NCBI GenBank assembly: GCA_951406725.2 | Contig: OX597828.1 | Location: 24,800,001 to 24,864,000, forward strand | Length of the DNA: 64,000 nucleotides | Direction of reading: 5' to 3' | DNA from: Octopus vulgaris | Taxonomy: Eukaryota | In this document: piece after piece, positions 19,860 through 64,000 of the stretch | Layout of the letters: every line of letters begins with the position of its first letter | Numbering within the stretch: position 1 is the first letter of the stretch | Notes under the pieces: generated by a model | Seen by the model: only the letters and a program-made list of their open reading frames with translations | What the model was told of the DNA's origin: nothing | Databases searched by the model: none | Made by a program: the position numbers and the translations under genes

Positions 19860-20001
19860 GGTTATGAGAGGTAATGGTGTCAAGAAGACCCAAAGGTGTC
19901 AGGTGATGTTGAGTAAGTGGTATGGACAGACTATAGTTAAGCTCCAGGTTCGGTGATTATGCAAATGAGGAGTCCAACGTATATATATATATATATATAT
20001 A

Positions 20002-20046
20002 TGAACCTGAAGATTGCATAATTTAATGCATGAAAGTACTAGTTCA
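20002..20046 (+). ncRNA. Minimal type I hammerhead ribozyme motif
   Basis: TGAAC-CTGAAGA-T-TGCAT..ATGCA-T-GAAA-GTAC-TA-GTTCA; 5-bp stem I, palindromic stem III. Confidence 0.82.
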
Positions 20047-20230
20047 ATCAGAATGAACATTTAACATTCTATTATTTTATTTTATTTTATTATATTATAT
20101 TATCTTATATTATATCATTATAAGATTGTAAATAAAACGTGAAAATCAGACAAGGTTGGAATTCCTTTCATTAATATATTCTTCTATACACAATCACACA
20201 CACCCGTATATATATAAGATACATAGTTCA

Positions 20231-24304: not shown

Positions 24305-24330
24305 TATGTATATGTATATATATATATATA

Positions 24331-24992
<662 letters not shown>

Positions 24993-24997
<5 letters not shown>

Positions 24998-25557
24998 AGA
25001 GCGAGTTATAAACAGTAGCGGTAACACATCGTGACGCATATTTGCCATTTGAATATGGCTAACCCCTAAGGGTGGATGCTACTGTAGTAGAGGACACAGA
25101 TATTGTGTCTATAGCCAGCTGGACGAGATATCTTCCTGGGGCTACAGACTACAGTAGCATCCACCCTTAGGGGTTAGCCATATTCAAATGGCAAATATGC
25201 GTCACGATGTGTTACCGCTACTGTTTATAACTCGCTCTGAGATTTATCATTGTTTGATTTCTCTTTTTCAATATCAGTGTCAATCGACACTGGAAAAAGT
25301 ATATGTATTTGTGAAGGAGCTGACTTCTTGTCGACAACCATGATTGTCACACGCTGATGAAAGGTAAACACCTTGAAACTCGGGTCCGTGTGTATCATGA
25401 GTTGAAGACGGGGAGGATGACTCCCCTTCACAAATACTGAGAGGACACAGATAGTGTGTCTATAGCCAGCTGGAGGAGATATCTTCCTGGGGCTGCAAAC
25501 TACAGTAGCATCCACCCTTAGGGGTTAGCCATATTCAAATGGCAAATATGCGTCACG

Positions 25558-25559
<2 letters not shown>
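24993..25559 (+). mobile_element. Retrozyme/mini-Penelope-like element: 351-nt period, ~1.3-mer plus 96-bp inverted leader
   Basis: Direct repeats 25090-25208 / 25441-25559; inverted 24993-25088 vs 25148-25243; internal hammerhead; (TA)n flanks. Confidence 0.82.
25348..25392 (+). ncRNA. Type I hammerhead ribozyme
   Basis: CACACG-CTGATGA-AAGGT-AAAC-ACCTT-GAAA-CTCGGG-TC-CGTGTG; predicted cleavage after GUC at 25386. Confidence 0.9.
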
Positions 25560-25617
<58 letters not shown>

Positions 25618-25626
25618 ATATATGTG

Positions 25627-25685
<59 letters not shown>

Positions 25686-26206
25686 GTATATGTGTATGTC
25701 TTAATATCTTAGCAGTATATATATATAACTAAGATATTAATTAGGTGGTAGAGTCGATGTGAATCACTTCTAAGTCAGCTGGAACGCACAATAAAATATA
25801 TTTGTGTTTATGTTCCAATATAACATCACCAATATAGAAACAACAAAAACAACAGCAACAACAACCGCAGCAGCAACAACAACAACAACTGCAACAGTAA
25901 TGACTGCAACTATAAAAAAAGCTTCAATAACAGTATAACATCAATAAGAACAACAACAATTATCACATCGTTACATCAGAACTTTCTAGAAATTAGTTTT
26001 AAAAGAACATTTCTATTAATTAAATTTTCATTCAGTTTTTTTCTTCTTTTTTTTGACTTTTCGCTAAAATTTGTTTGTTTCTTGTTTTTGTTTTTTTTTT
26101 GTAATTACCTAAAACCAAAATATAACACAGGTGTCCTGTGATTAGTTTATTGTTGTTGCTGTTGTTGTTGTTGACGTTACTGTTATTGTTATTATTTTGG
26201 CGGCAC

Positions 26207-31419: not shown

Positions 31420-31502
<83 letters not shown>

Positions 31503-31506
<4 letters not shown>

Positions 31507-31962
31507 AATCTCTGAGTGAGGTATAAACAGTAGCTGCAACACATCGTGAAGTATATTTATCACTTAAATGTGGATAACCCCTAAGGGTACCTTGTAGCCC
31601 CAGGAGGACACCTCCTCCAGCTGGCTATTGATACACTTTCTGTGCCCTATCAGCTATTGTTTATACTTCGCTCAGAGATTTATTATTGCTTGTTTACACT
31701 TTTTCGATATCAGTAACTTTTCGTCACTGGAAAAAGGATATATATTTGCAAAGAGAGGCCTACTTTTCATCGACAACTCGTGGTTGTCACACGCTGATGA
31801 CGGGTCAATACCCAGAAACTCGAGTCCGTGTGTATCATAGGTTGAAGACGCGAAGGATGGCTTCCCTTTGGAAATACTGATAGGGCACAGAAAGTGTGTC
31901 AATAGCCTCCTGGGGCTACAAACTACAGTAGCATCCACCCTTAAGTGGTAAATATACTTCAC
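31503..31962 (+). mobile_element. Second, diverged copy of the ~351-nt retrozyme-like element with an inverted 5' segment
   Basis: Colinear with 24993-25559; inverted 31503-31653; (TA)n flanks. Confidence 0.82.
31788..31832 (+). ncRNA. Type I hammerhead ribozyme
   Basis: CACACG-CTGATGA-CGGGT-CAAT-ACCCA-GAAA-CTCGAG-TC-CGTGTG. Confidence 0.88.
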
Positions 31963-31981
31963 TATATATATATATATATAT

Positions 31982-36199: not shown

Positions 36200-38530
36200 G
36201 TTGGTTGAGGTTGGGTCTATATTTAATTGTGGTTTATTCTTGTTAATAAGTTGTCTTTCTTTATTTAGTCTTTATTGTTGTTTGAAAGAATTTGGGCATT
36301 TTTAGAAGAGAAACACCGTAAAAACCCATGTAAGTTGCGCACCAGGTAATTTTCAGAATAAAAATTGTTAAAAAAAGCTTCTATTCGTGTAAAATTCGCA
36401 CCCAAAAGTTTTCAGAATTGCTGATATGGCCAGTGGGGAAAGGCTTTCAATTTAGTTGGATTTAGAATAATTTCATTAACTTATGTTTAGATTTTATTGA
36501 ATGTTTATTAAATAAAAATAATTTCAGTTTAACAGGTATCACATTGAAAGCTATTAAATTACGAAGTGTTTGTGTTGTTTATAATAAACTTTATTTTACA
36601 TTTCTTGCCCACAAGAGCTTACGTCCGATCTTTGGCATACTTCTGTGTCTTCTCAAATCACGATCACAAGAAAAATTGTTAATAATTCTTATCAGCAAAA
36701 ACAAAGCTGATAAATACGAACTAGTGTTGCAAAATAAGTTTAATTACCGATAAACATCAGCTTGGATGACACTTTACTCAACCGACAGAGGAAGGTGACC
36801 GATCAAATTGATTATGTAAACAGAATTCTGATTCGTCGAAAGTGTCTTTTTGTCTGAAGCTCTGATTTTCTGCCTATTCTTGTGGGCACCTTTGATATGG
36901 AGTATCGAAATTTTAATCCCTTTCACACCTATAAAATATCAAGCAAACTTTAAAATTTGTCATTACCTTTTTAGCCCGCTAAAATAAACATTAAAAATCG
37001 AAAGGAGAAAATAAACAGCTTTGCAAGTTTAACTTAGTGTTTATTGAACAAGAGAGGTGCGAATTTTAAGAAGCGACTCGTTAGAATATACATGTCTGTG
37101 AAGAGACATAAACAAGAATAGCAAAAATCTACTATACCAAAAGAACAAGTGCTCTATGAAGAGAACATAAGATTGCTGCATAATTCAACATGAATGTGAA
37201 GCGACATTAAACATCGTTTAAGGTAAATGAAGGTTTCTGTAGGAACGCTAAGTCGTATTCACTTAGTGAGTTTACATGCGCAAGGATGAATTATAATGTT
37301 GTTGTCGGCGTTAGGTGCAGTAAGAGCTAGTAGCGGCGATGTCGGCGGTGATGAATTTCATTGTCCTAAAGCGGAGAGAGCGAGCAATAGCTTCTTGGAT
37401 GCAAGCGCAAGCTAGACTCCTTAAGCAGAGAAAAACTGATCTATTAAAAGAAATTACTGGGCTCCATTGCGATAAGTAGAAACTCCAAGCAATGTAAAAT
37501 ATGGTCCGGACTGTGATTACCAGCATGAACATCAAACTTCAAAATTTTGTTAACCATTTAATGGTTTAGTAAATTTATGCAGAAAATGCAAGCATTATAC
37601 CGTTCAGCATAAATAAAAGTCAACTTCATTAAGTTTTTTTCTGTAAAAACCTATTCTGACATTAAATCAGTCACCTTTCCGTACGAATATTTACATTTGT
37701 ACGTCATTTTTTACAAAAAAATTCTAAATACATTCTGGAAACGATTTACTCATGTACTTTACGCACCCACTGATGTTTATTTTTGATTTTGCGAAAAAAA
37801 TAAGTTCGTAAATTACGTGGGTTTTTACGGCATTTTGAAACTGGGTAAGACCATTCCTGCACACATTGCAATGTGAATGCTTAAAGGAATTTTCCTTGTG
37901 CTTTTGTCTCGGATATGTTGGCGATGGGTCGTCATTCTGTTGCGTAACGATCCGTCCGTCTGACCTATGTAATTATGCTGCAACTGTTAAATGTAATTAC
38001 GTAGATCAGGTTTTCCGTGTTGCGGGTGAGAGTGGACTTTGAAGGTTTGGCCATCTTTGAATTTAAATTCTGTCTCCTCAATTAAGAAACAGCAAGTGCC
38101 GCAGTTTGTTCTTCCGCATTTTGTGACAGTTGGGTTAGGGGTGTCTTTGTGCGTTTTTGCTCCGGTGAGAATGAGTTTTAGTGTTTCAGCTGCCTTTTGA
38201 GTTTGATGGTTTGTTGTTTTTCCAAGATCTTCCTCATTTTTTCATCTGAGAATAAGATGAGGAGGTTATGTGGATGCAATCAAATATTTCGGTGTTCCTG
38301 AGACTGATGGTTGACATGAATGGTAAAATATTATTTTCTTGAGTTCATTGATATCCATTGTTTATTCCGTTGGTGATCATGCCAGGAGGGAAGGCTCTTT
38401 CGATAAATGAGTCCTTCTGTTTCTCTAGTCTTTGTTCATGTTTGGATGGTTCGGATACTATGGTGCAAATTCGTTTTGGTGTGTTTCGGGTGACATGACG
38501 TGAAAAGAAACAGACCAAACTCAACATTCC
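36200..38530 (-). mobile_element. Penelope-like retroelement remnant (RT C-terminus and GIY-YIG endonuclease), interrupted
   Basis: KRICTIVSE..AFPPGMITNGI at 38345-38500; NLIYVITFNSC / NYIGQT..LRNRMTTHRQHI..HIAMC at 37850-38025; ERQLINKNKPQLN at 36220-36260. Confidence 0.82.
36316..37830. mobile_element. Non-autonomous pogo-like DNA transposon (~1.5 kb)
   Basis: TIRs CCGTAAAAACCCATGTAAGTTGCG / CGTAAATTACGTGGGTTTTTACGG; both flanks read CA (presumed decayed TA). Confidence 0.75.
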
Positions 38531-54815: not shown

Positions 54816-56535
54816 CTTAGAATAACTTAGAATAACTTAGAAAGGTTTTGGCCAGTATTGGCCCAGGCCATGTCTAACTTAATAGCACCACCTGGCGAAG
54901 TCTTTCAATTCAGGATTTGGGCACTGAGGCCCATTCGAGCAGAGAGTTATTGTTTGCGGAGACATATCCGGGTGTGGGCGGTTTGTCCGGGACTGTTTGA
55001 AAGAATTTGTCCAAAGACTTCTTGAATTTTGCGTGGTCAGTTTCTGTTTTGACGTGTCCTGGTGTAATGTTGAAGAGAGCGGGTCCAATTGAGGTGAAAT
55101 AATTGTGCTGTATTGTCGTTATATGATGCGATTTAGATTTTTGTTGTGGACGGATGGCACGTGGTCCAAGCCTTGGATGTATTTTGAAGGTGATGCCAAC
55201 ATCATTCGGACAGTGCTGATGGAATATTTTCCACATCATACCGATAATGTAGCGTTCACGGCGTCGTTGAAGTGAATACAGTTTCAGTTTCTCTAGTCTA
55301 CCCCAGTAGTCAAGGTCTGACATGCCATCTATCTTTTTTGTGATTGACCTTTGGGGAGCTTCAATTCTCATAATATTTTGTTTTGTGTAGGGAGACCACA
55401 GTGGACAGCAGTATTCAAGGTAGGGTCGAGCAAAAGTGGAGAAGAGAAGGATAATGGTGTGGGAATCTCTCGACTGGAAGGTTCTGAGAATCCAGGAACA
55501 CATTCTGCGGGCCAAATCAACTTTGCTGCTTATATGTGTAGCCCAGCTTATGTTGTTGTCCACTGTTACTCCCAAGTCTCTGATGTTGTTAGACGCCATG
55601 AGAATTTCTCCAGAAGGAAGGGAGTATGGGAGTTTCAGAGCGTCCTTCCTTCCAAAGTGGATCAGTTCGAATTTGTCTTCGTTTAGCAACATGTTCTTTT
55701 CCACCCATTGGACAACAGCCAGTAAGTCTGACTGAAGGCTTTTTCGGTCATCCACGCCATTGATGACCTTCTGGAGCTTGGAATCATCAGCGAAGGTTCT
55801 GATGTTACTGTGTTTGATGGTGTCAGTAATATCATTAATGTAGATGATGAAGAGAAGTGGGCCCAACATAGTGCCTTGTGAGACACCACTGCTGACTTTG
55901 GCTGGGCTGGATTTGACTCCTTCGACTGCAACATGTTGGATTCTGTTAGACAGGAAGCACTTGATCCACTGCAGCAGCTTTCCAGTGACACCAATATTGG
56001 ACAGCTTTCTCAAAAGGATCTTATGATCAACCCTGTCAAAGGCCTTGCTGAAAACAAGGTAGATGACATCAGTGTTGGAACCCTCTCCCAAGGCTCTCAA
56101 AATGTCATCAAAATGATGCAGTAGCTGGTTGGAGTTCACCATATTATGACTCTCGAGGAAGTGAGTCATACGCGATCTCAGCACTCTCTCAAATACCTTA
56201 ATGATATGAGAGGTGAGTGAGATTGGACGGTAATTCACGGCAAGCGATTTGCTTCCTTTTTTGAAAACTGGGACAACAGACTGTGATAGAAGGTCTTCTG
56301 GTATATATCCAGCATCCAGTGAGTTCCGCCACAGATTGGCTAGAGGGGGTGCAAGTTGGTGTTGACACATCTTCAAGACACAAGTAGGGAACCTATCGGG
56401 ACCTACTGCTGAATTATGTTTCATTTCCTTTATTGCTGCTAAGACATTAGGAGCGCCAAAGGTTATGTCCGATAAAGTTTATTGGGGAGTAACATCACTG
56501 ATACAGCCCAGATCAGTCATATCAGGAATACACTT
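54812..56535 (-). mobile_element. 5'-truncated CR1-group LINE
   Basis: RT ORF 54910-56424; short 3' UTR ending in three 10-bp repeats (CTAAGTTATT) beside (TA)n. Confidence 0.88.
54910..56424 (-). pseudogene. Non-LTR reverse transcriptase, truncated and defective
   Basis: NYRPISLTS, FSKAFDRVDH, GVSQGTMLGPLLF, FADD; lacks the HGF..CLTQ block and the first catalytic D (LVFSKAFD). Confidence 0.88.
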
Positions 56536-62527: not shown

Positions 62528-64000
62528 TGTTGTTGGCATCCTTTTTGTCTCGGGAGACAATGGAGTTGCGCATAAAATAATCTAGTCCGGCTTTTACATT
62601 TCATGTCCTAATACATCTCTTGCTGTGGCTGTGTAGTCCTATCCGGGACAAACACTCCCTCTGGCAGGTGCCGTAAATGTAGCGAAGACTTTGCCTGACT
62701 GGTTGTAATGTCATAGTTTCTTGTTGACGTATTTTCTTGTCTTTCCATTTCTCCTTTCTTACTATGTCACTCCTTTGTGTTCCCTCTTTTACGGTACGTC
62801 GCCAATCTCCACGGTTGCTGGCAACTGCTTCCCAGTTGGTAATATTGATGTTGCAGGCACTCATGTCCCTTTTGCAAACATCCTTGTATCGTAAGAACAG
62901 TCTTCCCACAGACCTAGTGCCCCTAGCAAGCTCTCCGTTGAGTATGTCCTTGGGGATTCTGCCATCTTCCATACGGCTAACATGTCCAAGCCATCTCATA
63001 CGTCTTTGTGTGAAGAGTGCAAACATGCTTGGTATTCCTGCTTGCTTGAGGACATCTTTGTTAGGGACATGATTCTGCCATTTGATGCGATGGATTTTCC
63101 GGAGACAGCGCAGGTGAAAGATATTTAGGCGACGTATGGCGTCGTATGGCGTGTGTATGGCGTCAAAGTCATACAGTAGAGTGCTAAGTACACATGCCTG
63201 GTAAATCTTCATTTTTGTGGTCTTGGTCAGCTTATTGTTGTCCCATGCGCGTTTGGTGAGTTGGGCCATCACAGCAGCTGCCTTGCCAATGCGTATATTG
63301 AGCTCAGCATCAAGGGATAGGTTGTAGGTGACGGTAGAGCCAAGATAGGTAAACTTCTCCACCTCCTATACTCTGTGGTCTCCAATATGTATGTTTGGGA
63401 TGTCCGATGTAGCCTGACCCATGATGTTGATCTTCTTGAGGCTGATAACTAAGCCAAAGTTGCCAAATGCTTGCTCAAAACAGTTGCTGAGCCTTCGTAG
63501 GGCTTCTTCTGTGTGTGATACCAGAGCGGCATCATCAGCAAATAACATCTCCTTGATCAGGACGCTTCAGAGATTTTGGTCTTGGCACGCAGACGCGAGA
63601 GATTGAACAGTTTCCCATCACTTCTACTGTGCAGAAACACTCCATCATCTGATGTCTCAAAGGCATGTGACAGCAGCAGCGAGAAGATGCCAAATAATGT
63701 AGGAGCAAGGACACAACCTTGCTCTACCCCATTTTTTATTTGGAAGGCGGCTGATGTTGAACCATTGTGCTGTATGGTGCCTTGCATATTAGCATGGAAT
63801 GATTTGATGATCCTCAACAGCTTTGGTGAACATCCGATTTTTTGGAGCAGGATGAAGAGGCCTTTTCTACTTACCAAGTCAAAGCCCTTTGTCAGATCAA
63901 TGAAGGCCATATATAATGGCATGTTCTGCTCTCTGGACTTCTGAAGTTGGCGTATGGAGAATATCATGTCAATAGTTGATCTGCTTCTTCTAAAGCCACA
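62528..64000 (-). mobile_element. RTE-clade LINE pseudogene, continues beyond the window
   Basis: MIFSIRQLQ, AFIDLTKGFD, QGCVLAPTLF, LFADD, FTYLGS, RWLGHV, terminal CQRECLSRIGLHSH; frameshifts and stops; short (CAA)n tail. Confidence 0.92.

Follow-up and report, generated by a model that had tools for sequence, protein, structure and literature searches.

The locus at positions 24993-25559 of a 64-kb window of the Octopus vulgaris genome (the window being the whole stretch of DNA that was analysed) combines direct repeats, an inverted segment and a ribozyme motif, which raises the question of what kind of element it is and how it was copied into the genome. It is one insertion of a 352/353-nt non-coding hammerhead repeat, flanked by (TA)n. 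The probable reading is that of a truncated, two-armed non-LTR retrozyme, written into (TA)n by the RT and GIY-YIG of a Penelope-like element (PLE) acting in trans. Comparisons with published systems refer to the accessible parts of the cited sources.

The (TA)n target was read in the sequence at 24938-24992 on the left (the repeat tract itself spans 24938-24994) and is matched on the right by TA/TG repeats from 25560 to 25699, so that the (TA)n flanks of the initial annotation were recovered; target-site duplications are unreadable within these flanks. The insertion begins with an inverted left arm on the reverse strand (24993-25088, unit positions 60-155), which is the exact reverse complement of 25148-25243 and corresponds to the 96-bp inverted leader claimed earlier. 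Its outer end is of the 'long' (tailed) kind and lies 8 nt short of the usual position 163. The forward arm (25089-25559, plus strand) covers 1.34 units, positions 1-351 and then 1-120, and stops at position 120, the 'short' end. Within it, 25089-25439 make up one full period of the unit, which measures 351 nt here and 352-353 nt in most other copies. Self-comparison placed the two copies of the direct repeat at 25089-25208, without ribozyme, and at 25440-25559; the period of 351 nt given initially holds, while the length of 119 bp had to be revised to 120 bp with 4 mismatches, the last base being common to the TA flank. The 43-nt segment between the two fixed ends (25209-25251, unit positions 121-163) is equivalent to the Penelope 'tail' as described in PMC8557442 and PMC11167929. 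All 29 stop-to-stop frames of at least 25 aa over 24700-25700 are short or cross the microsatellite, in line with the earlier view that no credible ORF is present. Rfam miRNA matches in the window were discarded as noise from microsatellites or hairpins.

The 120-bp 'terminal repeats' are not LTR-like: they arise from a circularly permuted unit copied 1.34 times from a fixed start, and two fixed starts on such a unit explain both these repeats and the inverted 'leader'. The direct repeats exclude the hammerhead, and because the locus contains only one ribozyme, its sequence does not permit it to release a cut-to-cut monomer by itself. With one ribozyme in 24993-25559 it also lies outside the definition of an active copy used by Li et al. 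(two consecutive units with complete ribozymes). The window copy is probably a dead-end member of a young retrozyme family.

The hammerhead is located at 25348-25392 on the plus strand. Stem I is formed by CACACG (25348-25353) and CGTGTG (25387-25392), 6 bp, and is followed by the core CTGATGA (CUGAUGA) at 25354-25360, a 5-bp stem II (AAGGT/ACCTT) with the loop AAAC (25361-25374), GAAA at 25375-25378 and a 2-bp stem III with the self-complementary loop TCGG. The cleavage triplet is GUC and the predicted cut lies 3' of 25386. All sequence features of a type I hammerhead (CUGANGA, GAAA, NUH, three stems, open stem I) are present, and the hammerhead descriptor found this motif as its sole match on both strands of the window, with 0 matches in 100 locally shuffled windows; the type I motif with intact core and GUC site that had been annotated was borne out by these searches. 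Stem I continues through an internal loop into an enclosing outer stem, also as initially described, which measures 12 bp (25306-25317 / 25425-25436). The resulting long rod (25305-25437, plus strand) carries compensatory changes across subfamilies, and the fold of 25305-25440 reached -58.2 kcal/mol (z -7.6, 0/200 shuffles as good) with the hammerhead at the tip of the rod. In the folding model the circular unit is predicted to be highly self-paired (z -5.5), and the stem III segment would form no fold alone and would pair with a second copy at -10.3 kcal/mol. Dimer pairing through stem III is an arrangement described for metazoan type I motifs (PMC4209133), and the dimer requirement of such hammerheads is reviewed in PMC6765202.

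The Rfam search proposed in the initial annotation gave no hammerhead match for the window copy. A young sister subfamily aligned to RF00163 over 45/45 positions with 32.2 bits (E 7e-6), just under the gathering score of 34. The G10.1-C11.1 pair at the base of stem II is A-U, not G-C, in the window copy and G-C in the young sister subfamily. Among 22 sequences, 12 have G-C and 10 have A-U at the second pair of stem II, and in 17 the first pair is unpaired; axolotl HHR_Amex2 is likewise reported to have a mismatched first pair (PMC7229834). Across the 22 copies the core hardly varies, and the rod and stem II show two-sided changes, in 36 cells compared to 13.9 in shuffles, a measure from 22 sequences that is inflated by their relatedness. 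Pairs changed on both sides numbered 7/46, a count not above that of the shuffles (133 of 500); the alignment kept five rows with non-homologous flank as their 5' part, which lowered the counts for the outer helix. Core and stems are retained across subfamilies that are about 78-99% alike, and the core is still recognisable in a relative of 68% identity.

The host assembly comprises 2.8 Gb in 227 contigs and has an octopus-like content of microsatellites and SINEs. A search with the unit returned 2793 candidates, of which 40 were scored, and exact searches found 252 matches to the intact-ribozyme pattern and 1121 to a 26-nt motif across the cut site, with 0 matches for the reversed controls; the genome-wide search suggested initially did retrieve a family. 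Its copies are dispersed over many chromosomes, fall into subfamilies of 68-99% identity and mostly have a 352-nt unit. The triplet is GUC, or GUA in one subfamily (8/39 loci). Tandem forms include dimers, trimers, an arm of 6.9 units (L214) and an array of nine ribozymes (L161), so that at least two complete ribozymes in tandem are found at the level of the family. The unit is non-coding, falls within 150-450 bp and has one type I hammerhead. By its sequence features the family is a non-LTR retrozyme. The initial annotation of a hammerhead retroelement with Penelope-type architecture agrees with these findings, since non-coding dimers to 9-mers with Penelope-type ends were recovered.

Several relatives were recorded beside the main family. 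An older, approximately 80% similar relative lies within the window at 31501-31963, is two-armed in (TA)n and retains an intact hammerhead with G-C at the second pair of stem II and a stem III loop that is a perfect palindrome. The 68% relative (L185, 2928-3307) keeps the long end and the hammerhead. In the nine-ribozyme array (G000:C2:14085000-14091500) the units are 0.3-1.4% apart and stand outside (TA)n; its right flank resembles a Pif1/Helitron helicase fragment. Unrelated hammerheads with long stem I adjoin GIY-YIG loci at L035 and L077. A-to-I editing is unsupported in the retrozyme family, where A>G and T>C each account for 41 of the rare changes. Pieces of several subfamilies occurred in four runs (X1, X2, X9, X12) that are only guessed to be RNA, and were set aside as having no bearing on expression, ends, strand or circle.

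To describe the insertions, 117 distinct loci from the best-match and pattern searches were mapped, a selection that is not random; duplicate loci were removed beforehand, 13 for this count and 7 for a count of 53 loci. The outer ends of 192 arms lay near unit position 120 in 88 cases and near 163-166 in 76, and (AT)n followed the end in 126/164 arms with a fixed end compared to 2/28 other arms. The two fixed ends are 43 nt apart in the unit and the inner ends are scattered. Among the two-armed insertions (n=59), 42 paired a short with a long end, 2 had two short ends, 1 had two long ends and 14 had an end that could not be classified, giving 42/45 short-and-long pairs among those classifiable (p 4e-10 against 0.5). 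The window copy obeys this rule with its short end on the right and its long end, trimmed by 8 nt, on the left. The family shows the traits expected of Penelope-like insertions: two fixed 3' ends set apart by a tail within the range of 30-45 nt, which inverted insertions carry at one end, together with 5' truncation of variable extent, a partial tandem, an inverted arm and an AT-rich target.

The same genome is rich in PLEs with RT and C-terminal GIY-YIG, many with intact frames of 781 aa; 6136 GIY-YIG candidates were counted and three coding families (A, B and C) were examined. These stop in (AT)n, have optional tails of 38, 33 and ~42 nt, respectively, and show a variant hammerhead, read by eye, 65-132 nt before the end. 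Among 30 loci of family C, the two-armed ones joined a tailed to an untailed end in 5/5 cases, of which two may be one duplicated locus. Because the insertion footprint of the retrozyme matches that of these coding elements, the comparison of sequences strongly suggests that it is mobilised by PLE machinery. Family A (L061-L064), a young coding family, has many near-identical 781-aa frames with RT, GIY-YIG and a Cys motif before the nuclease. It is putatively Neptune-like by its pattern of features. A second basis for this name is a passage in PMC8557442.

A particular partner was sought at the level of DNA. Among the 80 PLE-side loci compared, the ends of families A, B and C showed no DNA similarity to the unit, with 50 GIY-YIG loci and 29 further family C loci searched, the only matches near them being separate retrozyme insertions nearby; similarity of the retrozyme tail to the tails of families A and B, the two scored, was at chance level (shuffle p 0.12-0.78). 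Co-insertion with a PLE was considered at L065, L091, L107 and L132 and rejected, the retrozyme being set off from PLE sequence by TA or other DNA, and L134 is rearranged and uninformative on this point. At L171 826-2301 / L181 326-2100 a retrozyme arm is joined without TA to an inverted RT fragment and a family C 3' end. This junction was not accepted as proof of a partner, as the join could just as well stem from a deletion between two neighbouring insertions. None of the 39 other candidates scored, out of 1492, is more than 95% similar to the PLE part of L171.

The window itself holds further pieces of this kind. A different (TA)n-flanked repeat at 24730-24937 has a 95% match in L047; by eye, a minimal motif resembling a hammerhead was recognised in it, with CCGACGA as core and the palindrome ACGT in stem III. 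It probably represents the 3' terminus of a further Penelope-type element, lying in the TA tract of the retrozyme. A near-perfect fold-back at 24305-24585 (139-nt arms, 96% complementary, 3-nt loop, TA flanks) could be either MITE-like or a symmetric two-armed insertion. The 3' end of a coding family B element with variant hammerhead and tail lies at 19998-20225, a GIY-YIG-end fragment of another PLE at 37831-38205, and fragments read by eye as LINE-reverse-transcriptase-like at 435-872, 54910-56478 and 62601-63944.

Two explanations that dispense with an independently mobile retrozyme were weighed against these data. Copies might be solo or truncated pLTRs of a coding Penelope element yet to be found, as their ends, tails and targets are those of coding PLEs, only three coding families out of the 6136 GIY-YIG candidates were examined and one direct retrozyme-PLE junction exists at L171. 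The initial annotation had itself named, as the case that would overturn it, that every copy be just such a pLTR, and this does not hold: PLE protein matches occurred in 5/117 loci, none with a PLE frame in pLTR position. Moreover, the sequence past the tail runs seamlessly into the ribozyme, the period of 352/353 repeats up to 9 times, and the 49 single-arm loci have no inner flank common to more than two, which together leave the pLTR origin very improbable. Still less credence is given to a satellite or MITE-like repeat that spread at the DNA level by unequal crossing-over or fold-back with the hammerhead as passenger. The 9-mer array would suit it, having alleles common to non-adjacent units, a pattern of array turnover, and no TA flanks. 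It is at odds with the dispersal over many chromosomes, with fixed outer and ragged inner ends, with the absence of terminal inverted repeats of fixed length and with a short-and-long rule identical to that of coding PLEs, and the distribution of ends largely refutes it.

For the retrozyme mobilised by PLE machinery, the course of events may be envisaged as follows. Loci with at least two ribozymes would be transcribed, and monomers would be cut out by tandem hammerheads, which probably pair as dimers by way of their self-complementary stem III; a host ligase might close these monomers into circles. A PLE protein would then cut both strands of (TA)n and prime on both, at unit position ~120 on one and ~163/166 on the other; each cDNA would retrace between 0.1 and 7 turns of the unit, and the two cDNAs would be joined head to head. 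Frangieh et al. 2024 (PMC11167929) showed in vitro that both strands of AT-rich DNA are cut and extended by a PLE protein, and that the two internal RNA sites at which this protein starts mark the limits of the tail. A more specific form of this scheme, in which each insertion results from a PLE protein dimer rolling round one ribozyme-made 352-nt circle from both cut strands, with subunits starting at 120 and 163 and a helper without sequence kinship recognising RNA shape alone, is put forward only tentatively.

Whether the template was a circle was approached through the alleles of neighbouring units. In three young trimers neighbouring units are identical, and in the young subfamily 17/18 recurrent alleles and 7 locus-private alleles are found in every copy within an insertion; the young haplotypes differ between insertions, yet within an insertion they extend over every unit and both arms. 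In a 2425-nt arm whose ends are canonical, the 3 units compared share one haplotype of 7-8 alleles. Such uniformity is what a template in the form of one monomer circle would produce. Some older copies are mosaic: in the window's subfamily, 28/98 recurrent non-CpG alleles are carried by part of the copies within a locus, and linked mosaics are seen at L022, L027 and L139, so that one monomer circle fails to explain those copies; mixed templates, template switching, later conversion or recurrent mutation could account for the partial alleles. Ends at the predicted cut were surveyed by eye wherever a genome match carries an altered base among the three positions preceding the cut-site motif (50 matches), which gave 4 breaks at the site, 2 at -1 and 5 at -2 (~11) among ~1170 motif copies. 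These were not taken as a fossil of self-cleavage, as arms averaging a few hundred bases would yield a number of similar order, and no excess is claimed. Since few copies stop at the cut site, cut linear monomers were not the main template, and circles or uncut multimers remain. In an otherwise young unit, L132 has 14 extra bases (1524-1540) exactly at the predicted cut site, a single case that is possibly a template-jump or ligation scar.

The same PLE machinery could instead have copied an uncut linear multimeric transcript of long arrays, the ribozyme being weak or acting elsewhere and no circle being formed. The mosaic units inside arms of the window's subfamily speak for this, as does the existence of possible master arrays (L161 with 9 ribozymes, L214 with 6.9 units); the lack of an excess of ends at the cut site suits it as well as it suits a circle, and in vitro the anole PLE mainly used uncut RNA as its template (PMC11167929). 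In addition, 8/9 Xenopus dimers showed no cleavage (10.64898/2026.07.22.740005), which was counted against the ribozyme-circle reading. Without a monomer step, however, arms would only shorten and new mutations would be confined to one unit, whereas a number of young haplotypes, some of them private to one locus, are present throughout the units and in both arms, and the hammerhead core and stems were kept across the diverged subfamilies described above, down to a recognisable core in the most distant relative. On balance, a linear template without a circle appears rather unlikely, and a circular rather than an uncut linear template is moderately favoured for most insertions.

The octopus family closely resembles the metazoan non-LTR retrozymes of Cervera and de la Pena 2020 (PMC7229834), which are tandem non-coding repeats of 150-450 bp with GC under 50% and one type I hammerhead per unit. 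Shared features include the 2-bp stem III with tetraloop, a weak base of stem II, a self-paired predicted circle and PLEs alongside, and the closest cases are mussel repeats of 350-390 bp and axolotl Rtz_353 with HHR_Amex2. The octopus family departs from the account given in the accessible parts of that paper by its PLE tails, its inverted arms and its insertion into (TA)n; the same paper names PLEs as the strong candidate helper and proposes a return of animal retrozymes to the genome. Li, Clavereau, Pollet 2026 (10.64898/2026.07.22.740005) regard non-LTR retrozymes as non-autonomous PLE derivatives, based on co-occurrence in vertebrates and on pLTR homology. They too arrive at a PLE as the partner, and their elements likewise occur as monomers, dimers and multimers, most families having at most 7 units; under their definition of two consecutive units with complete ribozymes the octopus family qualifies and the window copy does not. 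Their sampling, as far as the available text reports it, covers vertebrates and no mollusc, whereas the octopus case rests on the insertion footprint, no pLTR homology having been found with the coding families compared.

Similarities to C-terminal GIY-YIG PLEs (PMC8557442, PMC11167929) extend to partial tandems, an inverted truncated arm, a 30-40 bp tail that is often one-ended, AT-rich or (TA)n targets and a hammerhead that lies upstream of two internal starts. A tail on one side only is a recognised feature of PLEs (Craig et al. 2021, PMC8557442). The retrozyme differs from them in having no ORF and a unit that is a seamless circular permutation, and its near-canonical hammerhead with extended stem I contrasts with the minimal pLTR type (PMC4209133). 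A further parallel is offered by non-autonomous Chlamys elements, MRC1 of Chlamydomonas among them, which are also non-coding, mobilised by PLEs, pLTR-forming and frequently present in multiple copies, head to tail (PMC8557442). Non-autonomous elements of that group generally resemble their autonomous partner at the 3' end, as described in the same source, whereas the octopus unit is unlike the three families tested and carries a hammerhead.

Retrozymes, their link to Penelope and the one-sided tail are already published. Searches of the openly accessible literature found no publication that deals with a retrozyme of octopus or any cephalopod, that describes PLE tails on retrozymes or that demonstrates a return to the genome from footprints. 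Since each ingredient was known before, what is gained is one more test case and not a new system. The octopus family offers a young 352-nt substrate with two exact predicted start sites and a short-and-long rule, and intact candidate helper proteins are encoded in the same genome, so that the identity of the helper and the question of circle versus linear template are open to reconstitution in the manner of PMC11167929. If insertions do arise by rolling round one circle with recognition by shape only, the family would be the cleanest natural test of the circle-to-DNA step in animal retrozymes, and rolling from positions 120 and 163 would bear on the origin of the one-sided tail of PLEs.
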